Source: a virus
Lineage: Duplodnaviria > Caudoviricetes
DNA: 64,000 nt
Reading direction: 5' to 3' (one strand)
IMG/VR virus record: IMGVR_UViG_3300025030_000042
Shown here: positions 31,236 to 63,484 of the stretch, piece after piece
Layout: every line of letters begins with the position of its first letter
How positions within the stretch are numbered: position 1 is the stretch's first letter
Translations under genes and position numbers: made by a program
The notes under the pieces: generated by a model
Databases searched by the model: none
Told to the model about the DNA's origin: nothing
The model's input: only the letters and a program-made list of their open reading frames with translations

Positions 31236-31433
31236 TTATTCTTCCGATTGTTCTTCATCATTTAGATTGATTTGAAACTTTGGCGGATTTATAACTTCCA
31301 ACTCTCCTTGATCGTTTTTAACAAACTCCAAGTCTTTTAGAATTTCAACAATGTCACTTTGTTCTGCCAATGACTTTACAAGCGCCATTGTTAAACAGCT
31401 CATACTTTGATGACTCAACTTTAAATTTTCCAT
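31236..31433 (-). CDS. Hypothetical protein, 65 aa
   Basis: Short ORF coupled to both neighbours. Confidence 0.6.
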   Translation of the reverse strand: MENLKLSHQSMSCLTMALVKSLAEQSDIVEILKDLEFVKNDQGELEVINPPKFQINLNDEEQSEE

Positions 31434-32422
31434 TTTTGACTCCCCTTAGTAATCTCTTGTTTTATTAAAAGTTCATCTGAATCATACATCATTTTTACGA
31501 GTTTTTCAAATTTTATTTTTGGTATCCAACCAAGATTCTTTTTTGCTTTTGAATAATCGCCCAACAGAAGAGGAACTTCTTGTGGTCTGAAATATTTAGG
31601 ATCTATTTCTACATATTTCATAGGATCACCAAGCCCAGCATATTCAAAAGTTAAATCAAGAAACTCACGAATAGAATGAGTTTCACCAGAGCAAATAACA
31701 TAATCTTCTGGAGTTTGTTGTTGTAACATCAAATACATAGCTTCGACATAATCTTTTGCGTGACCCCAATCTCGTTTCGCTTCAAGATTACCTAAATAAA
31801 GTTTATCTTGTAACCCATATTTTATTCTTGCTGCCGCTAATGTTATTTTGCGCGTTACAAATGTTTCACCGCGACGCTCCGATTCATGGTTAAACAATAT
31901 TCCAGAACACGCAAATAAACCATAAGACCTACGATAAACGTCAACCATGTGATGTGCTGCAAGTTTAGAAATGGCATAAATTGAAGAAGGAATGGTGATA
32001 GATTCTTCGTTTAATGGTATTTTTGAATTTATACCATAAATTTCACTAGAACTAGCTTGATAATATTTTGATTCTGGTATTATTGTTTTATACGCATTCA
32101 ACAACCTTAAGGTTCCCAAAACTATTCCATCGGCAGTATTTTCACTCAAATCAAAAGAAACCCTGACGTGGGACTGCGCAGCTAAATTATAAATTTCATC
32201 TGGTTTATATAAGTTTAATAATTCATACATTCTTCCAGAGTCATTCAAATCAAAATATTCAAGTTTAAAATTTAAATTATTTAACAAATGATCTATTCTA
32301 CAAGTATTTATTAAACTTGTTCTTCGCTTTAATCCAATAACAAAATATCCTTTATTAAGAAGGAACTCTGAAAGAAAACTTCCATCTTGACCACTAACAC
32401 CAGTTATTAATGCGGTTTTCAT
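31421..32422 (-). CDS. gmd: GDP-mannose 4,6-dehydratase (copy 1)
   Basis: KTALITGVSGQDGSFL, YNLAAQSHVRVSF, YQASSSE, YAISK, GILFNHESERRGETFVTRKIT, LGNLEAKRDWGHAKDYV. Confidence 0.97.
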   Translation of the reverse strand: MKTALITGVSGQDGSFLSEFLLNKGYFVIGLKRRTSLINTCRIDHLLNNLNFKLEYFDLNDSGRMYELLNLYKPDEIYNLAAQSHVRVSFDLSENTADGIVLGTLRLLNAYKTIIPESKYYQASSSEIYGINSKIPLNEESITIPSSIYAISKLAAHHMVDVYRRSYGLFACSGILFNHESERRGETFVTRKITLAAARIKYGLQDKLYLGNLEAKRDWGHAKDYVEAMYLMLQQQTPEDYVICSGETHSIREFLDLTFEYAGLGDPMKYVEIDPKYFRPQEVPLLLGDYSKAKKNLGWIPKIKFEKLVKMMYDSDELLIKQEITKGSQKWKI

Positions 32423-33147
32423 ATTATTTTATCCTTCCAATTATAAAAATTTTCCACCAGCATTTTTACCCATTCTTTAAATTTTACAATTGTCATATCT
32501 CTTTTGGATTTATTACATACCTCACAACAGGTAACACAATTATCTTTTGTATATCCCAAACTATTATTCACCCTATCTATTCCATTATATGTATATCCTC
32601 CATAATTTCCATTAGAAGGTTTTCTATATGTAGAAGGAACGGATGAGCAATAAAAACAATTCGCATCAATAAAATCTTTAAATTCTTGTCTTGTTAAAGA
32701 AAATTCTATATTTTTTCTTTCAGCAGCTTTTTTATATCCCAACATTATTCTATTTACAGTTCCTTCTCCAAAATCCATACGATTAAATCTATAACACCCA
32801 CAACTTGTTGAATTTCCACTTATTATATTTGATGTTTTGATCCAAACTTCATTACCACAATCGCAAATACACAATACTTTATCATTGTCAAAAGTATCTG
32901 TAACAAACAAATATTTAAATTTCTTATTTTTTACTTTTTCTCTTGAAATATCTCTTCTTTTACAATTATTTAAAGATTTTTTACACCCACAACTTTTTCT
33001 ACTACCTCTGTGCCTCACTAATTCCCCTGTTTTTATCCAAACTTCATTACTGCAATCGCAAATACACAACCTTTTTCCACTTTTCATTTCATTTGTAGCT
33101 ACAAGTTTATCAAATCTATTTCCCAATAAATCCATCATTTTTCCCAT
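32419..33147 (-). mobile_element. Free-standing HNH homing endonuclease gene
   Basis: Two CICDC(S/G)NEVWIKT...SCGC repeats, then CFYC...NGIDRVNNSLGYTKDNCVTCCEVCNKSK (HNH); splits the normally adjacent gmd-fcl pair. Confidence 0.88.
32840..33069. repeat. 35-bp internal direct repeat (2 mismatches) in the HNH gene
   Basis: atccaaacttcattac(ca/tg)caatcgcaaatacacaa at 32840-32874 and 33035-33069, encoding the duplicated LCICDCxNEVWIK module. Confidence 0.9.
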
Positions 33148-34075
33148 TTATTCCTCTCAAATTTGGATAGTTACTTTCAAAATGTTCGCAAACTTCTTCA
33201 AGCACTTCTTTTAGAGGAGTATAATCTGTTTTCTTCCAGCCTGTCAATCCCAAAAACTTCTTGTTGCAAGATGGTTTTAAATATTGGCCGGTTGGTTGAG
33301 AAACATCCCAAATAATATTTTCTTTTCTAAAACCTAAAATATCGCAAATCATATTAACGACTTGCCTAATAGAATGTGACTGCGTATTACCAACATTTAA
33401 AGGATATTCGTAGTCATATTTTTCCAATATTAGTTTAATAATCTTTGCTATATCTTTTGAACTTGTAAACTCACGCCACGCAGAGCCATCGCCCCAAATA
33501 GTTGCCTTCGTATTATTCTTTTTTGCTTCATATATTTTTCTTATCAATGCTGGAACTACGTGTGATCCATTCAAATCATAGTTATCGTTTACTCCAACCA
33601 AATTGTTTGGAACTATCGTAACAAAGTTACATCCATATTGTTTACGATATGCTCTTGATTGAATATCCAAAGCGCGTTTAGCGTAAGCGTATCCAAAGTT
33701 AGAAATATGTGGCTCTCCTAAATGTATTTTATCTTCAGTTAGCGGATGTTCTATAATATCAGGAAATATACAACTTGACATTAGAGACACAACTTTTTTA
33801 ACATTATATCTTCTTGAATATTCAAGAACATTCGTATTCATTTTTATATTGTCGTAAAAAAACTCTCCAAGATGTTCTTGATTATTTTTAACTCCACCCA
33901 CTCTTGCCGCCAAATGAATAACACATTCTGGGCAATACTTTTTAAACATAGCGTTACACTCTTCTTCACTTCTTAAATCATATTGTGAAGATGAAACATA
34001 AATCGCTTCTGGATATATTTCTTTTAAAGCGGTGCCAAGCATACCAGAACCGCCGGTAGTTAAAATATTTTTCAT
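33116..34075 (-). CDS. fcl: GDP-L-fucose synthase
   Basis: ILTTGGSGMLG, VIHLAARVGGV, SSCIFPD, YAYAKR, SHVVPALIRK, IWGDGSAWREF. Confidence 0.95.
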   Translation of the reverse strand: MKNILTTGGSGMLGTALKEIYPEAIYVSSSQYDLRSEEECNAMFKKYCPECVIHLAARVGGVKNNQEHLGEFFYDNIKMNTNVLEYSRRYNVKKVVSLMSSCIFPDIIEHPLTEDKIHLGEPHISNFGYAYAKRALDIQSRAYRKQYGCNFVTIVPNNLVGVNDNYDLNGSHVVPALIRKIYEAKKNNTKATIWGDGSAWREFTSSKDIAKIIKLILEKYDYEYPLNVGNTQSHSIRQVVNMICDILGFRKENIIWDVSQPTGQYLKPSCNKKFLGLTGWKKTDYTPLKEVLEEVCEHFESNYPNLRGINGKNDGFIGK

Positions 34076-34779
34076 TTTTTACACCCACCGTGTAATCCAC
34101 ACTCTTTTTGCTCTGAAGGAGCCTCCCAGCGCCACCGACCACTTCTTATATGATCCCAACGACAGGTTTTGTTAGAACAACAAGCACATCCAATACTGGA
34201 ATAACCCTCATAAAATAAAGGATTTATTTCTATCTTATTTTCTTTTATATATTCCCAAACTTCTTCTTCTGTCCAGTCGGCAAGAGGATTTATTTTCTTT
34301 TTTCCCGGATTCACAAAATCGTCTTCAATATTTTTTAGGTTATTTCTTGTATCGGATTGTCCATTTCTTAGTCCAGTAATCCAAGCATCACAAGATTTTA
34401 ACGCTCTTTGAAGAGGTTCTACTTTTCTTATATGACAGCATTCTTTTCTATTTTCAACCGATTCTCTAAATCCATTTATTCCATACTGATTAACATATTT
34501 TTCAACATTTTGTGCTTCTGGAAAGAAGATTTTGAAATCAAGATTTTCTTTATATTCGTCTATAATAAAAGAAATATATTGATATGTTTCATTATGAAGA
34601 CGACCGGTATCAAGAATAACAACGCTATATTTTTCTGTTGTCTTTTGTCCTATTTTTGATATCATATCAAGAACAACCGTTCCTTCTAAACCCAGAGAAG
34701 TGACCAATGTTATTCTTTCTCTGTACTGATTTAAGATTTGTTCAAGAAACTTTGCTGTATTTAAAACTTTATTTTTCAT
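34072..34779 (-). CDS. cysH: APS/PAPS reductase
   Basis: LDTGRLHNETY, ECCHIRKVEPL, WITGLR, KINPLADW, GYSSIGCACC, RSGRWRW, KECGLH. Confidence 0.93.
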   Translation of the reverse strand: MKNKVLNTAKFLEQILNQYRERITLVTSLGLEGTVVLDMISKIGQKTTEKYSVVILDTGRLHNETYQYISFIIDEYKENLDFKIFFPEAQNVEKYVNQYGINGFRESVENRKECCHIRKVEPLQRALKSCDAWITGLRNGQSDTRNNLKNIEDDFVNPGKKKINPLADWTEEEVWEYIKENKIEINPLFYEGYSSIGCACCSNKTCRWDHIRSGRWRWEAPSEQKECGLHGGCKK

Positions 34780-35224
34780 CTCTTTCTATTTTCCACTCTT
34801 CTTTATTACCGTCTTTATCATATTGTTCTCTATTTCCAAGAACGCGTAATCTGACATCATTTACTACAATATCCCCTTCTTTTAATCGTTTACTGTTTTT
34901 TTCTGTTATTATAGTTCCCGCGCCAATAACACACTTATCTGGAATGTTTGACCCAGCAAGAATAATCGCTCCCGCACCAACCCACACATCATTTCCAATA
35001 ACGGTGGGTATAGTTACAATACGATTAGTATTTTCTGCGTTCATAGTGGATTCAATACTTTTTATCACGTGTTCAGCACTGTGGACAATCACTCCAGGTC
35101 CAAATAGAGTGTTTTCTCCTATTGTTATACCACCTCTGGCATTAAACCAACAGTTATCATTATAGCCACTTCCTTTTCCCATTTTAAATCTTTCTGGGTA
35201 ATTAATCACTACATTTTTGCTCAT
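34769..35224 (-). CDS. Hexapeptide-repeat (LbH) O-acetyltransferase
   Basis: ITIGENTLFGPGVIV...VIGNDVWVGAGAIILAG...VIGAGTII. Confidence 0.88.
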   Translation of the reverse strand: MSKNVVINYPERFKMGKGSGYNDNCWFNARGGITIGENTLFGPGVIVHSAEHVIKSIESTMNAENTNRIVTIPTVIGNDVWVGAGAIILAGSNIPDKCVIGAGTIITEKNSKRLKEGDIVVNDVRLRVLGNREQYDKDGNKEEWKIERDEK

Positions 35225-35225
35225 T

Positions 35226-35915
35226 TTATTTTACCATCAGAAGTTCTGCCAATCGAAAATCAACTTCGGTATCAATATCTACGCTTCTTTCTCTCGACAT
35301 ATAATAACCTTTAATTTTCCCACCAAAAAAATGTCCTTCTTCAAGAAACATTTTTCTTTTACATCCATATAATGCCCCATTTGGTCTATATTTCTTTTCC
35401 CAATCTTGAGATCTTGTATTATTATTGGCAAATGGCTTATCGGGATTATTTTCAGTTACAAAGTTACCATCAAACCGTAAAGATAACTCTGGAGGAAACT
35501 CATAATCCGTGATAGACACCACCCCATCACAAGCATATAAGAGTTTTTTGGCGGCCCGAACATCTTCTTTTATTCGCAACGGACAAGTCGGTAATGCCAA
35601 CCAAACTTCAGCAAATCTATTATTATTTTCTATTTCCTCTTGAACATAATGCCAAACCGTATCAATAACTTTGCTCGTGTTTGTGGATAAATGTTCTGGT
35701 CTCTTTGAGATATTAAAATATTTTTGATACCCACTATGCTTTGTTGCGATATCCAAAATCTCATCGTCATCAGAAGTAAAAATAATCTTTTCAAACTCTC
35801 CACAAACAGCATCAAGCGTCCAATAAACAAGTGGTTGTCCAGATAGTTCTTTGATGTTTTTCTTTTTTAATCTCTGACTTCCACCTCTCGCCGGAACAAC
35901 AAGTAATCTTGACAT
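35226..35915 (-). CDS. neuA: CMP-N-acylneuraminate (nonulosonate) cytidylyltransferase
   Basis: VVPARGGSQRLKKKNIKEL, KRPEHLS, PTCPLR, YRPNGALY, SVDIDTEVDF. Confidence 0.92.
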   Translation of the reverse strand: MSRLLVVPARGGSQRLKKKNIKELSGQPLVYWTLDAVCGEFEKIIFTSDDDEILDIATKHSGYQKYFNISKRPEHLSTNTSKVIDTVWHYVQEEIENNNRFAEVWLALPTCPLRIKEDVRAAKKLLYACDGVVSITDYEFPPELSLRFDGNFVTENNPDKPFANNNTRSQDWEKKYRPNGALYGCKRKMFLEEGHFFGGKIKGYYMSRERSVDIDTEVDFRLAELLMVK

Positions 35916-36802
35916 TATTCCTCCCCTATTGCTATGCGATAAAGATATTCGGAATATTTATTTTTACCCAATCCTTCAGAAAGTTTTATTAGTTGCTCTT
36001 TATTTATCCAGCCTTTATTGAAGGCAATCTCTTCAATACAAGATATCATAAGTCCTTGCCGACTTTGAACAGTATATACGAAAGTTGAACTCTCCAATAA
36101 ACTATCATATGTTCCAGAATCAAAATAAGTATATCCTCGTCCCATTTGAACGAGTTCAAGTCTATTTTCTTCAAGATATTTATTGTTTACTGAAGTTATT
36201 TCAAGTTCTCCGCGTTCGGATGGTTCAATATTTTTCGCTACACTTACAACATCTGAATCATACATATAAAGACCAACTACAGCATAGTTGGATTTTGGCT
36301 TTTTTGGTTTTTCTTCAATACTGGATATTTTCCCATTTCTTTTATCTATTTTGACCACACCATATCTTTCCGGATTGTTGACACGATACGAAAATATCAC
36401 TCCATTCCTTTTATTTTTTACAACTTCTATACCCTTTTTTAAAACATCTTCCGATATATCCGCCCCATAAAAAATATTGTCTCCCAAAATAAGACAAACA
36501 TCATCATTTTTTATAAAATCTTCTGCTACAACAAAAGCATCCGCTATACCACGAGGAGCAGTTTGTATGGCATATGAAATATTTATTCCAAGATGTTTTC
36601 CATCTTTCAAAAGTTTTTGAAACTGTTCTTTATCTTCTGGATTACATATAATCAATACATCTTTGATATCCGCCAGCATTAGTGTTGAAAGAGGATAATA
36701 GACCATCGGTTTATCGTAAACCGATAATAAAGATTTCGTTGTTGTTTTGGTTATTGGATACAACCTTGTACCTCTGCCGCCGGCTAAAATAATACCTTTC
36801 AT
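35915..36802 (-). CDS. rfbA: Glucose-1-phosphate thymidylyltransferase
   Basis: MKGIILAGGRGTRLYPIT, VYDKPMVYYPL, LILGDNIFYG, EEKPKKPKSNYAVVGLY, RGELEIT. Confidence 0.97.
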   Translation of the reverse strand: MKGIILAGGRGTRLYPITKTTTKSLLSVYDKPMVYYPLSTLMLADIKDVLIICNPEDKEQFQKLLKDGKHLGINISYAIQTAPRGIADAFVVAEDFIKNDDVCLILGDNIFYGADISEDVLKKGIEVVKNKRNGVIFSYRVNNPERYGVVKIDKRNGKISSIEEKPKKPKSNYAVVGLYMYDSDVVSVAKNIEPSERGELEITSVNNKYLEENRLELVQMGRGYTYFDSGTYDSLLESSTFVYTVQSRQGLMISCIEEIAFNKGWINKEQLIKLSEGLGKNKYSEYLYRIAIGEE

Positions 36803-37761
36803 AAGCTATTTAAAAAACTCCTCATTTTTTCTATCCTATCATCATTTTCGGGCAGTTTTTTTTCTTTATCAATATGATATTTAAGTATTTGTTTTTCTTC
36901 GGGTATTTTAAGCATATATGATTTTCTAAATGATTTTTTTATCTGTTCTATGCCGTTCTCATCTTTAAAGTTTGACGCAACAGAAACAGCGTCCACCATT
37001 TTTCTGAAGTTTTCGGTCCAATCTGTTTGTGTAATCCATTTATTTTGAGGCGGGAAATGTTCTTCTATACCCTTTATTCTCTCCGACCCTTCACCGTGAT
37101 AGATAAAATCTATATCATTTAATCTTATGCTGTTTCCCCACACGACACTCAAATAATCTATTATCTGTCCCGTAAATCTGAAGTTAGTTGGATCTGCTAT
37201 AGAAAGCAAACCGAAACTTTTTATAGCATCCGTTGTTCTCATTACATTATGCCAGTTAGAATGTGGACCCTTTGATTGTTCTATTATTCTCTCCTCACTA
37301 GATAAGCCAACAATAGAGCATAAATAAGTCCCATAAATATTTTCATATAACTTTTGTGGATTATTATTATAAAATCTTTTAACACTCCCGCGCGCCGAGG
37401 ACATATTTAAATGATTTTCTAAATATCCTACAATATATAATATTCCATTTGTAGTGAAATAATCATCATTATCAATAATAACACAATATTCTGTTCTAAT
37501 ACTTTTAACAGTTTCAAACATTTTATTATGAAAATCTGTTAAAGTGGAATCATAAGGAAACTTTCTATACTCACAGTTTACATTTGTGTAATGTAATAGC
37601 TCTCGACTTAAATCTTTATCCCCACCATCGGCAAATATAATCTTTATTGGATTTCCTAAGTATTCAAGATCCTTTGATAATAAATCTAAAAATCTAAAAG
37701 TGCATTGTTCTCTTCCTTTAAGTGGAACAATAATGGTTATTTTTTCGTAAAGTTCTTTCAT
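36799..37761 (-). CDS. GT2-like glycosyltransferase (TIGR00180-like)
   Basis: ITIIVPLKGR...IIFADGG...CVIIDNDDYF (GT-A DxD). Confidence 0.75.
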   Translation of the reverse strand: MKELYEKITIIVPLKGREQCTFRFLDLLSKDLEYLGNPIKIIFADGGDKDLSRELLHYTNVNCEYRKFPYDSTLTDFHNKMFETVKSIRTEYCVIIDNDDYFTTNGILYIVGYLENHLNMSSARGSVKRFYNNNPQKLYENIYGTYLCSIVGLSSEERIIEQSKGPHSNWHNVMRTTDAIKSFGLLSIADPTNFRFTGQIIDYLSVVWGNSIRLNDIDFIYHGEGSERIKGIEEHFPPQNKWITQTDWTENFRKMVDAVSVASNFKDENGIEQIKKSFRKSYMLKIPEEKQILKYHIDKEKKLPENDDRIEKMRSFLNSL

Positions 37762-38487
37762 TTATTTTATTCTTCTAATATATCCATCGGGTTGACACGA
37801 TAATAATAACTTATTCTGTATATCCGTGTCAATTTCAAAGTTTGTATTTTCTTTTAAAAACTGTTGTAATGCTGTCCTTGGATTATTTCCCTTTCCCCAA
37901 GGTCTTTCGCGAGATGTCTTATCGTCCTCAAAATCTTCAATAATCGTATCACAAACGACAATATAATCGCCAACATTTAAAAACTGGGAATATAGTTTAA
38001 GTTCTTGATACACATGCTCGTGTGTGTGATTGCTATCAAGGATTATAAACGTAGAATCCCCGAACTTATATTTTTTAACGAGTTCAAGAACATCATTACT
38101 TACAGAATCTCCCTCTATAAAACACAAATCGCAGTTTCCTTTGTTTTTGTTTTCCACTCTTTTCTTTAAATCTTCTGGAATATATTTATCAATAGCAATA
38201 ACGAGTCCCGTTCTCTTCAAATGAGAAATAAAAAGAGATGTTCCAGCCCAACAAACACCCACTTCTATGATTGTTGTTGGTTTTGTTTTATATATTATTT
38301 CTTGTATCGCAAACAAATCTTGTGGCAGTTGAAGAGATGGTTCTCCGGCAAATGTCGTTTGATGAATCCAATGATATGAATCTGCTTTTTGAAGTATTTT
38401 GCTCATTTGATTAATAAGTTTTTTATCAAGAAACATCCTTTTTGCTTCTTCTTTTCTCATATGTTCAAACTCTTCGCGTGTATACAT
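37762..38487 (-). CDS. CmcI / cephalosporin-hydroxylase-family SAM-dependent (sugar O-)methyltransferase-like protein
   Basis: LQLPQDLFAIQEII..TKPTTIIEVGV..AGT, ILDSNHTHEHV, GDYIVVCDTIIE, WGKGNNP; start reassigned to ATG at 38487 (GAGGA upstream). Confidence 0.88.
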   Translation of the reverse strand: MYTREEFEHMRKEEAKRMFLDKKLINQMSKILQKADSYHWIHQTTFAGEPSLQLPQDLFAIQEIIYKTKPTTIIEVGVCWAGTSLFISHLKRTGLVIAIDKYIPEDLKKRVENKNKGNCDLCFIEGDSVSNDVLELVKKYKFGDSTFIILDSNHTHEHVYQELKLYSQFLNVGDYIVVCDTIIEDFEDDKTSRERPWGKGNNPRTALQQFLKENTNFEIDTDIQNKLLLSCQPDGYIRRIK

Positions 38488-38488
38488 T

Positions 38489-39415
38489 TTATTCCTCTTC
38501 AAAAAGTCTCTTTATTTCGTCCATTTCTTTTTTGTAGTTAAAATAAGAAGTTATAAATTTCACATCTCCGCACAATCCATTATAGTTCTTATAATGATTT
38601 TCTAATAGAGATTTAATAAAATTTTGTATTTCAAATTTATTATATTTTACATCCATTTTTCCCATCAGAAAAGAACCTAGTGGTTCTAAAAATTCTGGCG
38701 TAAAAGAGATACTTGGATCAAATTCAAAATTTAACTCTCTTTTAATATCTTCTCTTTCTATTAAATGTTCTTCTATACCGGAACTAATCATATATGGAGT
38801 TAATAATTTTTCCAAACGACCATTTATACAACACAAAAAAACAAATAATCTATCGGCAAACAAGATAGAATCAATTTTTGGATTTTTCTTTAAAAATTCA
38901 AAATAAAATCTATACATTTCAGATCTTAAAACGGAATGTTGACGAGCATGATAAAAATCAAAATAATATAATAATCTTGAAAATATTCTATCGGTTTTTA
39001 AAGGATTTTGTATTTGGTTATTAACCGCCTTAATATAATTCGTTTTAATGGTTAAATCTTTTTTTTGAATGTGATATTTAAAATATTCTCCATCGCAAGA
39101 AATACATTTAGGATCTTGTCTCATGTGCTCCAAACACTTAATAATACCGTCTTTAAAAATAATATCATCATCCGGACACTCTACAATATAATTTGTATTT
39201 ACCATTTGAGCAATAATATTCATTTTGTCAAAATATTTCATAGATCCGAAATAGATATATTCGAATCCAGATGGAACTAAATCTTTATACTCCTCCTTTG
39301 AACTGTCACAAATAATCTTACGACATTCAAAATCAGAATAATATTTAAATATTCTTTTTAAATTATAGTGACGATCGCGGACTGGAACAATAAGAGTTAG
39401 ATCGTTTATTTTCAT
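38489..39415 (-). CDS. GT2-like glycosyltransferase (TIGR00180-like), second paralogue
   Basis: LTLIVPVRDRH...IICDSS...VECPDDDIIF. Confidence 0.75.
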   Translation of the reverse strand: MKINDLTLIVPVRDRHYNLKRIFKYYSDFECRKIICDSSKEEYKDLVPSGFEYIYFGSMKYFDKMNIIAQMVNTNYIVECPDDDIIFKDGIIKCLEHMRQDPKCISCDGEYFKYHIQKKDLTIKTNYIKAVNNQIQNPLKTDRIFSRLLYYFDFYHARQHSVLRSEMYRFYFEFLKKNPKIDSILFADRLFVFLCCINGRLEKLLTPYMISSGIEEHLIEREDIKRELNFEFDPSISFTPEFLEPLGSFLMGKMDVKYNKFEIQNFIKSLLENHYKNYNGLCGDVKFITSYFNYKKEMDEIKRLFEEE

Positions 39416-39419
39416 ATAT

Positions 39420-43337: not shown

Positions 43338-43366
43338 TTTATTCCGTAAACAGTTTTATTGTTTCG

Positions 43367-45169: not shown

Positions 45170-45172
45170 ATA

Positions 45173-45541: not shown

Positions 45542-45542
45542 C

Positions 45543-48764: not shown

Positions 48765-48770
48765 CTTGTG

Positions 48771-54418: not shown

Positions 54419-54839
54419 ATATTTTATTATTGCCCACAAGTTTCAAAAACTGTAAATAATCTTTTATATAATCCTTCTCATCATATTCCATTGAACAAAT
54501 AGACATCAAAATCGCATATTCGTTCATAAATGTTATTTCTGCCCACTCCATCTCCGAGTGAAACACACTATCACCTGCCCAAGCATAGATATACCTCTTT
54601 TCGTGCCCGTTGTCAAGCATTATTCGGATTTTTCCCTTAACAATAACAAGCACTTGCTGATTTTGATGATGTGCATGATATCCTCGCGTCTCTCCTGGAG
54701 GAACATCCGTCACAACAAAAATCCGTTGCGGCACAAACGGAATATCAGAAAAACTTATTGGTAAAAGTTTTCCTCTATTCTTTTCGTCATAAATATTAAG
54801 AATATTTCTATTCAAGATATTCATACTTTCTATATTCAT
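54396..54839 (-). CDS. FdtA/QdtA-like cupin sugar 3,4-ketoisomerase
   Basis: RGKL...IPFVPQRIFVV..VP.GETRGYHAH, CSMEYDEKDYI. Confidence 0.9.
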   Translation of the reverse strand: MNIESMNILNRNILNIYDEKNRGKLLPISFSDIPFVPQRIFVVTDVPPGETRGYHAHHQNQQVLVIVKGKIRIMLDNGHEKRYIYAWAGDSVFHSEMEWAEITFMNEYAILMSICSMEYDEKDYIKDYLQFLKLVGNNKIYVKHFEI

Positions 54840-55857: not shown

Positions 55858-56078
55858 AACTTCACCTTCTTTAAATAATCAAATATAATACCACGAAACG
55901 AATGATTACTTACCTTTTCATTTCCAATCCAATAAATAATATATTGATTTTTTTCGTCATCATAACCAATCACCACGCCAACCCCTTTACACCAATCAAC
56001 ACAATAATCAATAATATTAAAACCTTCAAACTTTTTATGTTCTACAAGATCTCCAATATCCAAGTATCTTTTTTTCAT
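55854..56078 (-). CDS. Small KVGDL-family protein, 74 aa
   Basis: LDIGDLVEH...GVGVVIG...YIIYWI. Confidence 0.72.
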   Translation of the reverse strand: MKKRYLDIGDLVEHKKFEGFNIIDYCVDWCKGVGVVIGYDDEKNQYIIYWIGNEKVSNHSFRGIIFDYLKKVKF

Positions 56079-56737
56079 TATTTACATAACAACATCGAAC
56101 CCTTCCAGTCCCCAAAATCCATATTTTCATTATGTTTAATATGTTGCTCAATCTTAAAATGATATATATCAAGCATATTTTCAAACTCAATGAAGTTTAT
56201 TATAGATTGATAGGTTGTTCCACCGTAGGAAGGATTTAGTTTTATGCTCGTTGATTTATATTCAGAAAATAACTGACGATGTAATATTATTTTTCGTGAC
56301 ATCATCAAAACTTTTTCAAAACATTCAAGAGGCTTTTCCAACACATCAATAAACGCATTCATTAAAACAACATCATACTCTTCCACAAAATCTATATTAT
56401 CTTTATAAATATCAAATGTAATATAGGTGTTTGATGGGTTGACTGCTCTTGATACAGCGTTTACGATGTGTGGTAGGTCTGCTCCGATATAAAAATACTC
56501 TGGAAATACTCTTGAAAACTCTGCCGCTCCACACCCGAGTTCAACAATAGAAGACATTTTCGGAATATGAGAAACAAGTGTTTTTAATATTGAAAAATGA
56601 TCGGAGTGTTCTAATATGGGAAATAAAACACCTTGCGCTCCCAAGATCATTTGTTTGGGAGTTGTCTTTTTGTCATACCAACAGGTATCTGTATTATATT
56701 TCTTCTTCTTTTGGGACATTTGCTTTAGAATATTCAA
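56078..56737 (-). CDS. Class I SAM-dependent methyltransferase-like protein
   Basis: SIVELGCG...YIGADL...YDVVL. Confidence 0.7.
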   Translation of the reverse strand: MNILKQMSQKKKKYNTDTCWYDKKTTPKQMILGAQGVLFPILEHSDHFSILKTLVSHIPKMSSIVELGCGAAEFSRVFPEYFYIGADLPHIVNAVSRAVNPSNTYITFDIYKDNIDFVEEYDVVLMNAFIDVLEKPLECFEKVLMMSRKIILHRQLFSEYKSTSIKLNPSYGGTTYQSIINFIEFENMLDIYHFKIEQHIKHNENMDFGDWKGSMLLCK

Positions 56738-57126: not shown

Positions 57127-57316
57127 TTTGTTTTATCTCCTTGTAATGTAAGTAAACATAGTTTTTTGTAAAACTAACTATTTGACCAGAACAAATGCCG
57201 TTAATTCTTAACAAATAGTAACGATCGCCAGTTACCTTGTAAACAAATCTTATAAGTCCATAAAATTTTTCTATAATAAGATCTCCAACTTTAAACTTTG
57301 TTTTTTTCATCTTCAA
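57113..57316 (-). CDS. Small KVGDL-family protein, 67 aa
   Basis: TKFKVGDLII...RFVYKV...YYLLRING. Confidence 0.75.
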   Translation of the reverse strand: MKMKKTKFKVGDLIIEKFYGLIRFVYKVTGDRYYLLRINGICSGQIVSFTKNYVYLHYKEIKQNDDS

Positions 57317-58172
57317 ATCTTTTTAAGAGTTCTGGCAATGTTTTCTGAATCGGTTCCGGATGTGTTCCTTCAAACTTTGCCGTAAACGCTGGTCCTCTAT
57401 ATTCCGGTTTGAACTCGTGCGTGCCAGAATAGAGGTGCTCCGTCATTTCTCTTTCTTCATCTGTTTCTGAAGATATCCACGGTAAATACACACGATTGAA
57501 GTAATCTGGAATGATCTTGTTAATAGCAACCTTACTTTCGTAATACTCCATTTTCTGTTTGACTTGACTCGGAAAACAATAGCTGTAGTGATACATCATC
57601 AAACCGATTTCATTGAACATTTGATCACTGGAAATATGTTTTTGTTGTATCGGCGATTTATGTTGAATCGTTGGTGGACGGTGTGTTTTCCAAAAACAAT
57701 CAGGGGTTAGACGAAACGCCCTCAAAAAATTATCGGTTGCCTGTTCAAATCCGGTCACATATCTATCAAATCCACCATAAAACGAATAGGGCTTGACTCC
57801 GCACGAGGTTGGTTGCTCCTTCTCCAAAAACCGAATCACATTTTCAATATCTTCGGACTTGTAACACTCGTCGCTGTCAATCTGAAAAAGGTAATCGGCG
57901 TTCGCTTCGTTCACAAACTTCATATATGCGTTACATTGTTGATCTTTTTCGGACCATTGACCGTGAACGATTTTGATTTTGCCAGTGGGATCTGGAAAAG
58001 AATACAAAATATTATTTGTGTTGTCCGATGAGGTTTTGTGTCCCTTATCTTGCCAGTAACGGACCGGTCCTTGCGCTATTGCGATGACCGAGGCATATGG
58101 ATAAACACATTCAAGAACTTGTCGTAAAACATAATCGCTGTTAAAGGTAATCATTCCGAAGGCGAGTTTCAT
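57291..58172 (-). CDS. GT2-like glycosyltransferase
   Basis: MKLAFGMITFN...LFQIDSDECY (DxD), MYHYSY; start reassigned to ATG at 58172. Confidence 0.78.
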   Translation of the reverse strand: MKLAFGMITFNSDYVLRQVLECVYPYASVIAIAQGPVRYWQDKGHKTSSDNTNNILYSFPDPTGKIKIVHGQWSEKDQQCNAYMKFVNEANADYLFQIDSDECYKSEDIENVIRFLEKEQPTSCGVKPYSFYGGFDRYVTGFEQATDNFLRAFRLTPDCFWKTHRPPTIQHKSPIQQKHISSDQMFNEIGLMMYHYSYCFPSQVKQKMEYYESKVAINKIIPDYFNRVYLPWISSETDEEREMTEHLYSGTHEFKPEYRGPAFTAKFEGTHPEPIQKTLPELLKRFEDEKNKV

Positions 58173-58176
58173 TTGG

Positions 58177-58368
58177 TTATTTTCCAACAAGTAACTTTCT
58201 ACAATGCCGAAACGCATTATATATCATATCTCGTTCAAGATTACAATAGTTTACTCTATTTTGTTCATTTTGACAACTATCACTAAAAAACTTATTTGTA
58301 TAATATCCCGAAAAAAAGAATACCGTCATAAGCAAAAGCATTATGAATATAATTTTAAGTTTCATCAT
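58177..58368 (-). CDS. Small membrane/secreted hypothetical protein, 63 aa
   Basis: Hydrophobic N-terminus IIFIMLLLMTVFFF. Confidence 0.55.
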   Translation of the reverse strand: MMKLKIIFIMLLLMTVFFFSGYYTNKFFSDSCQNEQNRVNYCNLERDMIYNAFRHCRKLLVGK

Positions 58369-58576
58369 TTAATTTCCAAACACAAAACTGTGATTTGATA
58401 TTTGTTATTGTTACTTTTTCAATATAAACTTTTCTACACCTTTTGGCACAAAGAAAAAGAACCTTAACATAATCGCGTCCTAAAATCCTGTTTTCTCCAC
58501 AAACAAGCCCCATACACTTATCGTAATCTGAATAAACCAGATCGCCAACTGATAGTTCTAATCTTATCATTCCCAA
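58355..58576 (-). CDS. Small KVGDL-family protein, 73 aa
   Basis: LSVGDLVYS...MGLVCG...YVKVLFL. Confidence 0.7.
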   Translation of the reverse strand: MGMIRLELSVGDLVYSDYDKCMGLVCGENRILGRDYVKVLFLCAKRCRKVYIEKVTITNIKSQFCVWKLNDET

Positions 58577-59478
58577 TGCTCTTCAATCTTTTTAATCTTT
58601 TTAATCTTTTTCCAGTTTTCTTTACACACGAAATAATATTCAGTGTAACGCTCCCGATTCTCAATGTCAAGCGAAAATATTCCTGTGATTCCGTGCCTTT
58701 GCGCGGGCACAAAAAAATCTTTTTCGTAATCTGCCCGAAAATCCGAAAAGTGAAAGAAATCTGGATTTCCCTTTACTGTTCTAAAACTCCAAGGTGCTTT
58801 TTGAATAATCCCAGCATCATCCAAGATACAAATATTATGTTCGCCAAATAACTCTGGAAATAGATTTAAATATTTCTGATCTCCACATTGACCATATTCT
58901 TTCACATATTCGTTATTCGGGTTTAATAACCAGTTTCGCCAAGTATAAAGACAAGAGTTACCTATGCGATCGTTTTTGAAATAAGTAAACGAAACATTAT
59001 ATTTTCCGTTATTTTCATCCGACGCATTATTTTTAACAATGCCGATACTTTTATTTTCTATTTTATCCACAATATTTTGAACATCGGAATAGAAATAAAC
59101 ATCGGAATCAACATAAATGACCGAATCTGGATTATATGTTTCCAGAACGTAATAAGAAAAGAACGATGCTAAACACCACATCATTTCCATTCGTTTTGGA
59201 TCAATATTTTTTTTATTGCCCACATTCATTGCTTCAAATGATAGTGGCTTTTTGAGAAGTTGAAGATAATCTTGATCGACGTGTAGAACTCTTATATCAA
59301 CTGGGATTATATTTTTATATTGCCCATTCTGTATCTCGTCTCGAAAAAACTCATATATTTCATTATCAAGACAAAGATAATACAGTTTAAAGTCTTTTGT
59401 GTGTTTTTCTAACGATTGATATAATGATAGACCTTGAGGAAGGAAGTTGATATCAGATAGAGTTGTTAAAGTTATCAT
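58567..59478 (-). CDS. Putative nucleotide-diphospho-sugar transferase (GT8-like GT-A fold)
   Basis: TLSDINFL..GL.L..SL, IYVDSDVYF, YNVSF, GDQKYL, FFHFS. Confidence 0.75.
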   Translation of the reverse strand: MITLTTLSDINFLPQGLSLYQSLEKHTKDFKLYYLCLDNEIYEFFRDEIQNGQYKNIIPVDIRVLHVDQDYLQLLKKPLSFEAMNVGNKKNIDPKRMEMMWCLASFFSYYVLETYNPDSVIYVDSDVYFYSDVQNIVDKIENKSIGIVKNNASDENNGKYNVSFTYFKNDRIGNSCLYTWRNWLLNPNNEYVKEYGQCGDQKYLNLFPELFGEHNICILDDAGIIQKAPWSFRTVKGNPDFFHFSDFRADYEKDFFVPAQRHGITGIFSLDIENRERYTEYYFVCKENWKKIKKIKKIEEHWE

Positions 59479-59962: not shown

Positions 59963-59986
59963 TTTGATGAAACTACTTTTGCGTTT

Positions 59987-60178
59987 TCATAAATATAACT
60001 TTTTGTTACAAAATAACCAACCCAAGCAGTTTCGGCGTATTTGGGATATATAATATGCCAAAATATTGTCTTCAAATTTCTCTATCTCATATATAGCTCC
60101 AATATAATGTTTATAGAGAGTGTTGATTTTTGAATATGAATATTCAATCAAATCGCCCACTTTAAACTTATTATCCAT
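59987..60178 (-). CDS. Small KVGDL-family protein, 63 aa
   Basis: KFKVGDLIEY...IGAIYEI. Confidence 0.75.
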   Translation of the reverse strand: MDNKFKVGDLIEYSYSKINTLYKHYIGAIYEIEKFEDNILAYYISQIRRNCLGWLFCNKKLYL

Positions 60179-62189
60179 TCATTTCTCGCATTCTTTCAAT
60201 ATACATTTTTTGATACTTACGAAATACTTCAAGTTCTTGTTTTCTCTTCAAATCGTCCGTTTCTTTATTTGATGATAACCCGCGCGGATTCACATAATAG
60301 AGAACTCCGCTTTTGCTCTCCATTTTTTGGAATATAGCACCTCCAAACACCGAACGCAACCAAAACTCCCAATCGGAACAACTAAAATATTCCTCGCTGA
60401 AATGCCCGAATCGATCATGCAACGATTTTCGCCACACTGGCGCACAATGCGGAAGATTCTGTCGCAGAACCGCTTCCACAGAAAACTTTTCCATACGAGC
60501 ATACAATTTCTCTTCTCCGCTGTTGTTTACCCAGTTCTCGTTCGGTTTATGTGTTATATAAGCATCCGAATATACCAGATCCACTTCCTTCGGAGCGCGA
60601 TATAGTGCTTTCATGTGCCGTTCCAAAGACCAAAATGATTTTCGATCATCAAGATTCCAGTTAGATAATATTGTTGATGTAGATAACCTTATCGCTTCAT
60701 TCCAACATCCATATACACCCTTATCTTCGTCAAGAATTTTATAAACTATATTTTCTGGGTATTCAGATTTAAACTTTTCTATTGCCGCATTTTCTTTTTC
60801 AAAATCCGGCGATGTTTTCGGATGAACAAAAACAACTTCGCATTTACTTGGAAACACGGATTGTTCTTTTACATTTTCAATAAAACTATCAATAAACTCG
60901 CCACCTTTAAAAACAGAAGTCAATACAGAAACTTTGGGAAGATCATCTATAGTCACTTTCATTACTGAATGATCCAATAATGCTTCAACAAACTCTTTAT
61001 ATTTATCTTTATTATCAAAATTTTTCTTAATATGTTCTTGAAGTTGTTTTGCTTGAGATTTGAAACGAGAATATCCTTTATATACCTCTCGCAACTTCAT
61101 TTTAAACGAACCTTGCTTCGGATATGCCCATTGACTTTCTGGAATCAATACATTATTCCAAACGGCTTCTTTTTGAATGGGCTTGATATCGTAATCTACT
61201 TTAGCAAATAAAGGTTTATTTTTTGTTTTACCGTCTTTTTCTGTAACCGAAGCATAAAGAAAATCGGTTTGTCCGCCCCAATCGATCGTTATAACAGGGG
61301 TGCCGTAAGTTGCGGAATCGAATAAAGAAAAACTCCACCCTTCTCCGTGAGATATACAAATCGTTGCTTTAATCTTTTTGTGACTGTACAACCCCGCCAT
61401 TTCTTCTTGAGAAAGATCACCGTGAAGCAAGTGAACAGAACATTTACGCTCTTTATAATCTTTCAAAACATATTCAAGTTTCTTTTCTGTGTGTTCTCTA
61501 TCCATCATTGAATGATTTCGCAAACTCGTCTTTACAACTAATCCCACCGGAACATCAATAAACTCTTCCACAAACCAACGAACAGTATTTTCAAAGTTCT
61601 TTCTTATACTCCACTGCGACATAAGAAGAAAGTTAAAATCGTGCGGTAATGAATCTAGATTCAAATCTTTTGGTTCTTGTTTTGGATAAGCATAATGAAC
61701 AACCTTGACTGGTTTTTGAACACGATAATCTTTTATGATTTCACCGGTTTGATTATTTTTTGCTTCATATGAAGTTGTATCAAAACCATATTTTGCGTGA
61801 TTAGATATTACAAGAACACGATCAAAAATCTCATTTATTTTTGATACCCATTCTCCAGAGATTTTCGTTGTTTCAATGCCCGAAGTATAAAGAACATCAA
61901 CCGGAGCCATTTTGGCAACTTCTTTTTCATTGGGGATTGAAATCTGAAGACTCATATCAAACTGCCCACCTTGTTGAAGGTAAAGTTGAGTCTTTAAAAG
62001 AAGAGAATCAATCCATTTTCTTTCTTCGGTGTCCTCAAAACTCCAACCACATTGCCCCCACGGTAGAGAAACAGCATATATATCAAAATATTCTTCATAT
62101 TCGCGAAGCGCGCGCAAAGCAAATCTTGCTTGTTCGCCATATCCCGCTGTAACCAATATAGGAGCACGAACCAATATTTTCTTTTTCAT
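60171..62189 (-). CDS. Bifunctional glycosyltransferase: GT4-like (GT-B) + GT2 (GT-A), 672 aa
   Basis: N-part TAGYG, RKNFE, SHGEGWSFSLFDSA..GTPVI; C-part VSVLTSVF, GVYGCWN, WNLDD, PHCAPVWR, DWEFWLR. Confidence 0.85.
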   Translation of the reverse strand: MKKKILVRAPILVTAGYGEQARFALRALREYEEYFDIYAVSLPWGQCGWSFEDTEERKWIDSLLLKTQLYLQQGGQFDMSLQISIPNEKEVAKMAPVDVLYTSGIETTKISGEWVSKINEIFDRVLVISNHAKYGFDTTSYEAKNNQTGEIIKDYRVQKPVKVVHYAYPKQEPKDLNLDSLPHDFNFLLMSQWSIRKNFENTVRWFVEEFIDVPVGLVVKTSLRNHSMMDREHTEKKLEYVLKDYKERKCSVHLLHGDLSQEEMAGLYSHKKIKATICISHGEGWSFSLFDSATYGTPVITIDWGGQTDFLYASVTEKDGKTKNKPLFAKVDYDIKPIQKEAVWNNVLIPESQWAYPKQGSFKMKLREVYKGYSRFKSQAKQLQEHIKKNFDNKDKYKEFVEALLDHSVMKVTIDDLPKVSVLTSVFKGGEFIDSFIENVKEQSVFPSKCEVVFVHPKTSPDFEKENAAIEKFKSEYPENIVYKILDEDKGVYGCWNEAIRLSTSTILSNWNLDDRKSFWSLERHMKALYRAPKEVDLVYSDAYITHKPNENWVNNSGEEKLYARMEKFSVEAVLRQNLPHCAPVWRKSLHDRFGHFSEEYFSCSDWEFWLRSVFGGAIFQKMESKSGVLYYVNPRGLSSNKETDDLKRKQELEVFRKYQKMYIERMREMNG

Positions 62190-63484
62190 TATTTAATCTC
62201 CATCAACTTCCAACCTTGATAACCTTTTCGCCTACCTAGAACATTCCAAGAACCATATTTTTCATAAAGTTCCAACATTAGTTCTACCCATCGAGTTTGA
62301 AAGCGTTCGTAGTTCATATTTTTTAATATATGTTCACGACCTTTTTTACCCCATTCATCTCGTTCTTCTTTGGACATATAATACATTTTTTTCATTGCTT
62401 CAACAAAATCTTTTCCAGATATTGCGTCATCGTAAATATAAGGTACCATATAACCAAACTGATCTCGCCCCGATGAACCAACGAGAGTTTGAGCCGCCGG
62501 ATATACTGGAATACCAAACCAATTTTCGCCATCGGTTAGTTGATCTTTCATTCCGCCCGTCCAAGTTGCAATGACAGGAGTCTCGCAACTCATTGATTCC
62601 ATTAGAAATATTCCCCAACCTTCCGCCGAGCTCGCCGAAATCGTGCAGTCCGCCATATTATAAATCATTGCCAGCGCTTCGGGTGGAATTTTCTGTCTTG
62701 AAAAGAGAACTTCTCCATTTGTCAATCCCAAATATTCAATAATCTGTTCAAGATCGCATCCATTCGGATCAGTCGGATCTGTATGAAGAATCAATGTCGA
62801 TTTATCTTTTCCTACTTCGTTTAAAAAATCATTGAACCACCAAACGATTGAACCAGTGTTTTTTCGTTTGGCATTTCGGCTGTTATAAAAGAAAATGAAC
62901 TTATTACCGTCTGTCGTAGTTGTAGCAAAACTATCTTTACGAAATCTTTCAACATCCAGCATTGGCAACTTCTTAAAAATATTTGTGTCAACGGCGTGCG
63001 GAAGATATTCGCATTCCACTTCGGGTGCTACTTTTTGATTTAAATCTTGAGTTAGTTTGGAGATTGCTACGAGTTTATCTACACTTGTCCAAGAAGATCT
63101 ATTAAAATAGGGGTATGGGTGATTATCCCAAATCTCATAATACACAATTGGCATCAAAGGTCGTATTTCATTAGCAATATCAAATAGATGCGAGTGGAAT
63201 CTTGGATCGCTCATGAGGTAAATCATATCTGGTCTTTCTTGACGAATAACCGATCGAATAAGTTCTTGATTTCCGAAACCATCTACCGGTACGATCAAGA
63301 GATCATCGCCAAATTCTTCTGTTTTTGAATGTTGATAATTCGGATGCGCAATGGCACCAGCCAAGTGAACTATCTTAAACTTACCACTTCTCAAAAGTGC
63401 TTCGGCAATGATTCTACTTTGGTGCGCTACACCGCTCGTCGAATAAATCATATCCGAAATAAACAATACTTTTATTTTATCCAT
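62189..63484 (-). CDS. GT4-family (GT-B) glycosyltransferase, 431 aa
   Basis: STSGVA, PHAVD, RNAKRKN, YNMAD...SAEGWGIFLMESMSCETPVI...TGGM. Confidence 0.88.
   Translation of the reverse strand: MDKIKVLFISDMIYSTSGVAHQSRIIAEALLRSGKFKIVHLAGAIAHPNYQHSKTEEFGDDLLIVPVDGFGNQELIRSVIRQERPDMIYLMSDPRFHSHLFDIANEIRPLMPIVYYEIWDNHPYPYFNRSSWTSVDKLVAISKLTQDLNQKVAPEVECEYLPHAVDTNIFKKLPMLDVERFRKDSFATTTTDGNKFIFFYNSRNAKRKNTGSIVWWFNDFLNEVGKDKSTLILHTDPTDPNGCDLEQIIEYLGLTNGEVLFSRQKIPPEALAMIYNMADCTISASSAEGWGIFLMESMSCETPVIATWTGGMKDQLTDGENWFGIPVYPAAQTLVGSSGRDQFGYMVPYIYDDAISGKDFVEAMKKMYYMSKEERDEWGKKGREHILKNMNYERFQTRWVELMLELYEKYGSWNVLGRRKGYQGWKLMEIK

Follow-up and report, generated by a model that had tools for sequence, protein, structure and literature searches.

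The locus described here raises the question of what a tailed phage glycosylates when it carries some 32 kb of sugar genes of its own: its virion, the envelope of its host, its DNA or some other acceptor. The genes lie in a 64-kb stretch of IMG/VR virus record IMGVR_UViG_3300025030_000042 (Duplodnaviria; Caudoviricetes), which was analysed over its full length and is called the window in the following, and they form a gene-dense run almost without gaps on the minus strand (31421-63484, ~32 kb), hereafter the glycan island. A preliminary description, made from the sequence before any database search, had proposed that the phage attaches glycans to its own virion proteins. The soluble assembly implied by that proposal is supported by the present analysis; that this is an autonomous, fully soluble glycan island of a large contractile-tailed phage with exposed virion proteins as acceptor is the best reading of the data and is put forward tentatively, the acceptor being its least certain part.

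Layout and predicted enzymes of the island

All open reading frames (ORFs) of the window are on the minus strand, and alternative genetic codes were unneeded since the standard code already leaves about 94% of the window coding. Between 31236 and 63719 there are 54 ORFs; 39 of their 53 junctions overlap, nine measure 0-10 nt and five exceed 10 nt, which bears out the single co-oriented run of the preliminary description. The largest non-coding gaps of the island surround a decayed HNH region (43119-44276). Pfam or NCBIfam support was obtained for 24 island enzymes, to which three glycosyltransferase (GT) leads of GT-A-like type and one unknown protein are added, so that the 'roughly 30' genes counted before were a slight excess for a cluster that is itself real. 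The earlier gene list (two gmd genes, fcl, rfbA, two DegT aminotransferases, FdtA, a cupin, methyl-, acetyl- and formyltransferases, NeuA and NeuB) proved essentially right in the Pfam/NCBIfam searches, and its coordinates span the whole island, the genes beyond both ends not being glycan genes; missing from it were three homing endonucleases, 13 mini-ORFs with a KVGDL motif and a true CysH.

The predicted enzymes of sugar synthesis, assigned by Pfam/NCBIfam matches unless stated differently, are the following:

31421-32422 (-), guanosine diphosphate (GDP)-mannose 4,6-dehydratase (GMD), above the equivalog cut-off
33116-34075 (-), short-chain dehydrogenase/reductase (SDR) resembling GDP-fucose synthase
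34072-34779 (-), CysH, phosphoadenylylsulfate/adenylylsulfate (PAPS/APS) reductase, 242 bits against a cut-off of 154
34769-35224 (-), hexapeptide acetyltransferase
35226-35915 (-), cytidine monophosphate (CMP)-nonulosonate synthetase-like protein, closest to PseF (CTP_transf_3; PseF-like with 118 bits against 206)
35915-36802 (-), RmlA, above the cut-off
37762-38502 (-), CmcI-type O-methyltransferase
39420-40547 (-), DegT aminotransferase, closest to LegC
41032-41697 (-), hexapeptide N-acetyltransferase of the NeuD/PglB type
41690-42445 (-), sugar N-formyltransferase with an N_formyltrans_C domain
42442-43122 (-), protein of 226 aa without family assignment
44276-45169 (-), SDR of 297 aa
45173-45541 (-), cupin, RmlC/FdtA-like
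45888-47177 (-), sugar C-methyltransferase
47159-48115 (-), aldolase/dehydratase of the dihydrodipicolinate synthase (DHDPS) family
48771-50654 (-), NeuB-SAF fused to a xylose-isomerase-like TIM barrel (AP_endonuc_2), NeuB Pfam E 9.5e-63
50826-51785 (-), GMD-like 4,6-dehydratase
54396-54839 (-), FdtA-type 3,4-ketoisomerase, Pfam FdtA E 2.1e-28
54808-55857 (-), DegT aminotransferase, Pfam DegT E 4e-61
56078-56737 (-), possible S-adenosylmethionine (SAM) methyltransferase, weak (Pfam MetW E 7.9e-4, below the cut-off)

Judged by these family assignments, the island encodes three groups of nucleotide sugars. The GDP-L-fucose route is represented by GMD and the GDP-fucose-synthase-like enzyme, which make up a module at 31421-34075 and are separated by an HNH gene (32419-33147). 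The predicted deoxythymidine diphosphate (dTDP) sugar route comprises RmlA, FdtA, DegT, the cupin, the C-methyltransferase, the formyl- and acetyltransferases and the CmcI-type methyltransferase, and the assignments show 3-amino-3,6-dideoxy, C-methyl-branched, N-acylated or N-formylated and O-methylated sugars to be its likely products. Its genes are arranged in a 3-amino-3,6-dideoxyhexose module (FdtA and DegT, 54396-55857), a branched/deoxy-sugar module (SDR, cupin, C-methyltransferase and DHDPS-family enzyme, 44276-48115) and a group of amino-sugar tailoring genes at 39420-43122.

The third predicted route leads to a CMP-activated nine-carbon acid and is made up of the GMD-like dehydratase, the LegC-like aminotransferase, the NeuD-like acetyltransferase, the NeuB fusion and the cytidylyltransferase, the dehydratase and the fusion forming a nonulosonic-acid module at 48771-51785. 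The NeuB fusion scores 283 bits against TIGR03569, below the equivalog cut-off of 400 bits, so that the presence of a NeuB-family synthase and a CMP-nonulosonate synthetase is established at the level of families and not of one particular acid. Both proteins of the module have side-by-side orthologues in the relative L015 (GMD-like 56%, NeuB fusion 51%). The NeuB and TIM-barrel parts are probably functionally linked, since they are kept as a fusion in L015 (15305-17224) and occur as separate genes in L016 (11208-13515).

With respect to sulfur, the 297-aa SDR (44276-45169) gave a partial match to UDP-sulfoquinovose synthase (E 3e-14), and in the Tara Oceans relative L016 an APS kinase and a two-span DUF2061 domain form one protein (14909-15643). 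Together with CysH these genes hint at a sulfo- or sulfated sugar.

Eight GT proteins with nine GT domains were counted, in keeping with the earlier estimate of about eight GTs:

62189-63484 (-), core GT 1, GT4 of 431 aa with an EX7E motif, first gene of the island (Pfam Glycos_transf_1 E 6.8e-14)
60171-62189 (-), core GT 2, 672 aa, GT4-like in the N-terminal ~410 aa and GT2 at the C-terminus (Pfam GT2 at 421-593, weak GT1)
58567-59478 (-), lead, GT-A fold protein, GT8/Nucleotid_trans-like (Atlas feature score 0.98, structural TM score 0.91)
57291-58217 (-), GT2 (Pfam Glycos_transf_2 E 6.9e-9)
52843-53664 (-), lead, GT-A fold GT-like protein (Atlas 0.98, TM 0.93-0.94 to clusters named glycosyl transferase)
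51960-52583 (-), GT29-like (sialyltransferase family) soluble transferase, 207 aa (Pfam Glyco_transf_29 E 5.5e-23)
38489-39415 (-), lead, GT2-like/GT-A-like protein without Pfam match (Atlas features and structure)
36799-37761 (-), GT2, weak (Pfam)

For the three leads, the GT-A-like assignment comes from Atlas features and from structure prediction (TM scores of 0.81-0.94). For 58567-59478, neither a Pfam nor a PHROG match was obtained, and the matched clusters are mostly viral, with Glyco_transf_8 in a minority of their members; 52843-53664 additionally has weaker matches to Nucleotid_trans and to GT47-fused viral clusters. The GT29-like protein reaches 82.2 bits against a gathering cut-off of 23 and covers profile positions 58-271 of 272, its donor and acceptor use being predicted. 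A second GT29-like protein of 249 aa with a weak Pfam match is located in L016 (7531-8280), two genes upstream of a CMP-sugar synthetase, and the GT29-like transferase thus recurs with the nine-carbon-acid module in the lineage. In the alignment both core proteins retain the GT4-type GEG-x5-E motif, whose last residue is D in core GT 2 of the window. Orthologues of the core GT4 bear the Pfam label 'GT4-conflict', which reflects a weak overlap with the generic GT4 core (E 0.025 for the window protein) and from which nothing was drawn.

A conserved glycosyltransferase pair and an exchangeable cassette

DNA of the window was found in metagenomes labelled groundwater and soil from ten studies, with no RNA data set listed among those that contain it. 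A megablast search of 20 kb against INPHARED returned no near match, and neither did two scans of IMG/VR, one for exact words and one with the GT29 protein. Contigs of four groundwater/soil runs on 25001-45000 consisted of identical pieces at low depth, among which no alternative island forms were seen; joints at conserved enzyme genes in these contigs were DNA of other organisms. The core GT4 has 1672 homologue clusters in metagenomes at E <= 1e-10, the best 120 of which are all about 420 aa long and 48-56% identical, and has no close relative in 185,579 prokaryote species genomes.

Three relatives, L015, L016 and L017, were covered over their complete islands, each about 19 kb long. In all of them the first gene is orthologous to the core GT4 (45-46% identity) and the second to that part of core GT 2 which makes up its N-terminal 410 aa (44-50%). 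In L015 the GT4 gene is preceded by a PD-(D/E)XK nuclease gene, and in L016 and L017 this position is beyond the DNA that was covered. The window ends in what is assigned as the same gene:

63697-63984 (-), 3′ end of the upstream PD-(D/E)XK nuclease gene, which anchors the island on its 5′ side (33 aa align with the tail of the PDDEXK_1 gene before GT4 in L015, at 42% identity)

The closest long relative, the 207-kb contig L028, has a GT4 with 56% identity and the same order of nuclease and GT4 pair, apart from the insertion of an RNA ligase gene and several small ORFs.

The nearest catalogued relatives, with about 30% protein identity, are Microcystis phage Mel-JY01, Flavobacterium phage vB_FspM_immuto and the 484-kb uncultured LR756508.1. 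In immuto_2-6A the order is PD-(D/E)XK nuclease, small ORF, GT gp181 and GT gp180; gp181 is 31% identical to the core GT4 over 480 aa (E 4e-66), gp180 is 28% identical to core GT 2 (E 1.5e-46) and is followed by 11 kb of further genes, which encode GTs, aminotransferases, a methyltransferase, an acetyltransferase and an epimerase. In Mel-JY01 a PD-(D/E)XK nuclease, GuaB, a GT4 in two ORFs (28-33%) and a second GT of 455 aa (27%) are followed by GT-A proteins and a methyltransferase. The two adjacent ORFs annotated for this GT4 match residues 1-152 and 160-401 (L025 7442-8933; Mel-JY01 83441-84932) and reflect a genuine split, a frameshift or an error of sequencing. The GT4 pair and its order were found in every relative contig in which the 5′ end of the island was read; LR756508.1 is without the pair. 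No paper on the immuto or Mel-JY01 island was found in the literature. PMC12619734 describes a Bacteroidota-linked jumbo lineage, 'moraphage', with four core GT orthogroups, which could not be identified with the lineage of the window.

The divergence of the pair from the window (~45-55% identity in close relatives, ~27-33% in the cultured phages) matches, in all genomes compared, that of the sigma-like and gp6-like wedge proteins encoded beyond the other end of the island. Close relatives have 45-46% for GT4 and 51-55% for the sigma-like protein, and immuto and Mel-JY01 have 28-33% for GT4, 28-31% for the sigma-like protein and 29-31% for the gp6-like wedge. Because the pair diverges like these core proteins and has no close prokaryote relative, the comparison shows it, as far as gene sequences tell, to be a core pair of the phage lineage that was inherited vertically and not recently captured from a host.

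The genes between the pair and the 3′ boundary behave differently, and by gene content they are shown to be a swappable cassette: few of the relatives' sugar genes are orthologous to those of the window, and their place is taken in some relatives by genes for radical-SAM enzymes, PfkB kinases, an APS kinase, a UDP-glucose dehydrogenase, GT11 or GT47. Homing endonucleases inside the island may drive the exchange, and GIY-YIG genes are also present in the island of L028. Those of the window are:

32419-33147 (-), HNH endonuclease between GMD and fcl (Pfam/PHROG)
43119-44276 (-), decayed HNH homing endonuclease in pieces (PHROG endonuclease matches for 43923-44276; fragmentary ORFs)
48096-48764 (-), GIY-YIG and NUMOD3 homing endonuclease (Pfam)

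In addition, fourteen ORFs of 45-88 aa open with a K[VI]GDL[VI]-like motif, one at 27142-27384 and 13 between 45543 and 63719, where they are inserted among the enzyme genes, in many cases with overlaps on either side. In appearance they are a dispersed family of paralogous mini-genes, possibly of selfish elements.

At its 3′ end the island is followed by a small boundary block and the structural genes:

29975-31433 (-), 3′ boundary block of a 65-aa ORF, a Zn-ribbon protein, a protein with an N-terminal transmembrane segment and a sigma-like protein of 239 aa
5623-29955 (-), baseplate and tail-fibre module (PHROG wedge matches; Pfam VanY, Laminin_G_3)
27368-29650 (-), protein of 760 aa after the sigma-like gene with a VanY D-Ala-D-Ala carboxypeptidase domain (Pfam)
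16968-18431 (-), protein of 487 aa, candidate acceptor
6495-16919 (-), protein of 3474 aa with two Laminin_G_3 domains (Pfam), candidate acceptor

The structural genes that the preliminary description had placed beside the island were recovered in this module as gp6-like and gp25-like baseplate wedge proteins (PHROG), the VanY protein and the Laminin_G_3 protein. As Amidase_2 takes the place of VanY in the relatives' orthologues, the domain content suggests that the 760-aa protein is a tail-associated cell-wall hydrolase with swapped catalytic domains. The neighbouring 'late sigma factor' is, in its sigma part, moderately supported: homologues are named sigma factor by JGI, and nearly all top-50 fold matches of its AlphaFold model (predicted local distance difference test score 78) are sigma factors, all with E >= 0.057. 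A profile of the protein had no match among PDB sequences, and 'late' rests on gene position. No true copy of the early-promoter motif GATCGTATAAY was present within the window, which places the island outside the regulon of that motif and says only that; a sigma-70/terminator scan of the window (120 found against 99 expected) was dismissed as noise in AT-rich DNA.

More than 7,400 homologues of the sigma-like protein were found in metagenomes. Five long contigs with a 51-55% identical copy were compared (L005, L007, L009, L011 and L013, from JGI, ENA, a viral metagenome and Tara Oceans), and all five keep the same gene order: nucleotide-sugar cluster, 65-aa ORF, Zn-ribbon, small transmembrane protein, sigma-like protein, 98-aa protein, 263-1120-aa protein, ~310-375-aa protein and giant protein. 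For L009, tblastn gave no match to the Zn-ribbon gene, yet the gene table of the contig lists a weak Zn_ribbon_8 gene.

Soluble assembly and the acceptor question

In a hydropathy scan no island protein had more than one hydrophobic segment, and the complete islands of L015, L016 and L017 did not show a multi-span membrane protein either. Pfam and NCBIfam searches of the island ORFs detected no priming transferase, flippase, polymerase, ligase, ABC-2 permease or GtrA, and such genes were likewise absent from these three relatives' islands. None of the families PF01943, PF00953, PF02397, PF04932, PF01061 and PF04138 was present in the complete immuto and Mel-JY01 genomes, while the same six-family search found them in 8-14 of 14 cellular genomes used as control. 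An O-antigen or capsule locus is therefore matched in its clustering of nucleotide-sugar genes with several GTs. Its primer (WecA/MraY-type PF00953 or WbaP-type PF02397) was found in neither the island, the relatives nor the two complete genomes, and Wzx flippase or Wzm and Wzy or WaaL (PF01943, PF01061, PF04932) are lacking as well. For a GtrABC locus, a GtrA_DPMS_TM match and polytopic proteins are wanting. What is present are clustered, soluble virus GTs with lineage-specific content, as in virus-autonomous glycosylation. The statement that wzx, wzy, wzm, wzt, WecA/WbaP and GtrA/B genes are not visible is thereby upheld, the flanking genes at both island ends do not bring in carrier or flippase functions from just outside, and the machinery appears self-contained and soluble.

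The absence of membrane genes had also been taken as pointing to a protein acceptor, and as a proof of this it fails, because O-antigens, too, are built by soluble GTs on host carriers. The phage might assemble an oligosaccharide on host undecaprenyl-phosphate and have it exported by the host flippase and ligase, altering lipopolysaccharide (LPS) or capsule and blocking superinfection or re-adsorption to debris. The GTs of O-antigens are normally soluble or peripheral, hypervariable cassettes suit selection at a surface, JGI labels GT4 homologues as 'involved in cell wall biosynthesis', and for jumbo cyanophages, whose sugar/GT clusters comprise 15 genes, an LPS/O-antigen reading has been published (Iyer et al. 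2021, PMC7824862). Such remodelling of the host envelope is nevertheless considered unlikely. Primer, flippase, polymerase, ligase, ABC-2 permease and GtrA are all missing from the island and from two complete relatives, the first two GTs are kept as a core by phages that infect hosts of separate phyla, which differ in their envelope glycans, and a lytic cycle would probably be short for building a new glycan with eight GTs through non-cognate export machinery. An acceptor that travels with the phage is easier to reconcile with a GT4 pair shared by phages of Bacteroidota and Cyanobacteriota hosts than a host-specific envelope glycan.

The position of the island behind a PD-(D/E)XK nuclease gene, and among replication genes in Mel-JY01 and immuto, would fit a role in DNA hypermodification, in which GTs glycosylate modified bases against restriction as in T4 or 5-hydroxymethylcytosine (5hmC)-glycan systems. 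Among phage DNA GTs there are, moreover, GT-B enzymes for which BshA and MshA are again the nearest structures (bioRxiv 10.1101/2023.12.21.572611). This target, named as an alternative in the preliminary description, is now disfavoured and appears very improbable. Among the ORFs of the window there is no dCMP/dUMP hydroxymethylase, no TET/JBP or 5mYOX enzyme and no C5-methyltransferase beside the GTs; known DNA-glycan clusters contain one to three GTs and at most an epimerase, compared with eight GTs and five or more sugar pathways here. Furthermore, the DNA of immuto, which has an orthologous GT pair, contained only dA, dC, dT and fdPreQ1 and no glycosylated base when analysed at bulk level by liquid chromatography with ultraviolet and tandem mass spectrometric detection (PMC10516641).

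Deoxysugars with C-methyl, N-formyl or O-methyl groups typify antibiotic glycosides, and the GT4 relatives BshA, MshA and PimA take small-molecule or lipid acceptors. Small molecules or lipids could accordingly serve as acceptor, giving a glycolipid or a natural-product-like glycoside, and a cytoplasmic protein of the host or a phage protein outside the virion belongs to the same set of possibilities; a secondary-metabolite reading has been raised for a second cyanophage cluster (Iyer et al., PMC7824862). Since neither the window nor the relatives' islands contain aglycone genes (polyketide synthase, non-ribosomal peptide synthetase, terpene), and since eight GTs imply an oligosaccharide over a decorated aglycone, acceptors of this kind are regarded as improbable.

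A phage protein is thus the most likely acceptor by elimination of the alternatives and by precedent, and virion proteins would, by analogy, be its obvious candidates. In the mechanism that we propose for a virion acceptor, host GDP-mannose, glucose-1-phosphate and other precursors would be converted into three donor groups, namely GDP-fucose, dTDP-activated amino, N-formyl, N-acetyl, C-methyl and O-methyl deoxysugars, and a CMP-activated nine-carbon acid. The two conserved GT4 enzymes would set the first sugars on a conserved, phage-encoded acceptor, the six other GTs, whose families vary among relatives, would extend the chain, and the GT29-like enzyme might cap it with the nine-carbon acid. 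The likeliest acceptors, and the least certain element of the scheme, would be distal tail or fibre proteins encoded directly downstream of the island. The outcome would be a lineage-variable sugar coat comparable to that of mimivirus fibrils or of mycobacteriophage capsids and tail tubes.

A weak lead on the acceptor comes from the tripeptide [ST]GS, which was counted 32 times in the 3474-aa protein, where 4.7 +/- 2.2 are expected (7-fold), and seven times in the 487-aa protein, where 0.8 are expected (9-fold), in diverse sequence contexts, and in at most one or two copies in the other structural proteins of the window. Among the phages compared (enrichment loci in relatives: L001 24289-37960; L026 26009-38817), it is distributed as follows:

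Window phage: GT4 pair present, [ST]GS enriched in distal tail proteins
Mel-JY01: GT4 pair present, [ST]GS enriched
immuto: GT4 pair present, [ST]GS enriched more weakly
LR756508.1: GT4 pair absent, [ST]GS not enriched
T4 gp34, gp37, gp12, gp7, gp10 and wac: [ST]GS not enriched (control from outside knowledge, pair not checked)

As an established glycosylation motif [ST]GS was rejected, being confounded by the partly homologous fibre proteins of the three positive phages.

Several points weigh against a virion acceptor. The enrichment of [ST]GS may equally well be a fold feature of homologous fibre proteins. The missing membrane genes fit the use of host machinery, as GTs that work on host undecaprenyl carriers in O-antigen and capsule synthesis are also soluble. 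The nearest solved structures of the core GT4 are BshA and MshA, with small-molecule acceptors and weak E-values, so that family membership is uninformative on the acceptor. The distance from the island to the sigma/baseplate block is about 18 kb in immuto and about 70 kb in Mel-JY01, and both islands lie among replication/recombination genes, far from tail genes. The argument from adjacency to the tail module is thereby weakened; as the gene orders stand, the anchor at the recombination-gene end is the only one conserved throughout. Two of the predicted sugar routes also have gaps. No hydrolysing 2-epimerase of the NeuC/LegG type (PF02350, Epimerase_2) or PseG-type hydrolase was detected by Pfam in the window; Epimerase_2 was found in the relative L017, and one may speculate that the TIM-barrel domain fused to NeuB stands in for this step. 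Likewise, no gene of the island was assigned as a clear dTDP-glucose 4,6-dehydratase, for which the SDR at 44276-45169 is a candidate. Finally, a glycan on any virion of the clade is a prediction from genes. The wider proposition that a very widespread lineage of large aquatic and groundwater tailed phages, represented by thousands of metagenomic sequences, glycosylates its own tail fibres or virion proteins, with a nine-carbon-acid cap, swapped cassettes and a fixed GT4 pair, is accordingly offered as a possibility, and with somewhat more reserve than the virion acceptor in the window phage.

Comparison with known glycosylation systems

To our knowledge, proven phage virion glycosylation is limited to a few GTs in mycobacteriophages, and the sugar clusters of phages commonly receive the label 'LPS genes' with no test behind it. 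The glycans of mycobacteriophages are located on capsid and tail tube (Freeman et al. 2023, as cited in PMC12619734). According to this source, phage-encoded GTs work in the cytoplasm on the phage's own structural proteins, which is shown there and predicted for the island; the mycobacteriophages use few GTs and host nucleotide sugars and carry the glycans at capsid and tail-tube C-termini, whereas the island is predicted to encode complete rare-sugar pathways.

Wzx/Wzy/ABC O-antigen and capsule loci and GtrABC loci resemble the island in their co-oriented nucleotide-sugar genes and several GTs and differ from it in that every one of their defining membrane components is missing here. Flagellin O-glycosylation by Maf or FlmG with pseudaminic or legionaminic acid also combines a CMP-sugar synthetase with a synthase of the NeuB family and a transferase, both of them soluble, and the catalytic domain of Maf resembles GT29/GT42 sialyltransferases (bioRxiv 10.1101/2022.03.25.485807). 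In these systems a secreted structural protein is modified in the cytoplasm, whereas the acceptor of the island would be a phage protein; no match to the Maf or FlmG families was found in the island, where the transferase scores as GT29 proper.

The clusters of jumbo cyanophages such as P-SSM2, with about 15 genes, were read without experiment as modifying LPS or O-antigen (Iyer et al. 2021, PMC7824862). Like the island, they are polymorphic and contain epimerase/dehydratase paralogues, cupin isomerases, nucleotidyltransferases and several GT families, and their PfkB kinases and HIGH-type nucleotidyltransferases recur in the relatives' islands. The island differs from them in being about twice as large, in combining genes for a nine-carbon acid with a GT29-like transferase, and in having a GT4 pair that is inherited vertically and stands at a fixed anchor. 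Fibrils of the Megavirinae are glycosylated by clade-specific gene clusters, that of Cotonvirus including sulfate-metabolism genes (PMC9614988), and the island shares with them bacterial-type rare-sugar pathways clustered with several GTs, soluble enzymes and clade-specific content. The Megavirinae are eukaryotic giant viruses with clusters of 9-21 genes and proven fibril glycans, in contrast to a tailed phage with about 28 enzymes and a fixed GT4 core, known from its genes.

If a virion acceptor holds true, the island would be the bacteriophage counterpart of the mimivirus fibril glycocalyx, and it raises the question whether tailed phages make a glycocalyx of their own for shielding, adhesion or escape from grazers and defences. 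The acceptor can now be tested in two cultured members, immuto and Mel-JY01, and the island is at the same time a compact source of soluble rare-sugar enzymes and of a soluble GT29-like transferase from a bacterial virus. Among virus-encoded glycosylation clusters it is a new, much larger and modular variant; what is new in its predicted organization is the conservation of its edges, with the GT4 pair at one end and, in the lineage of the window, the Zn-ribbon/sigma-like/baseplate block at the other.

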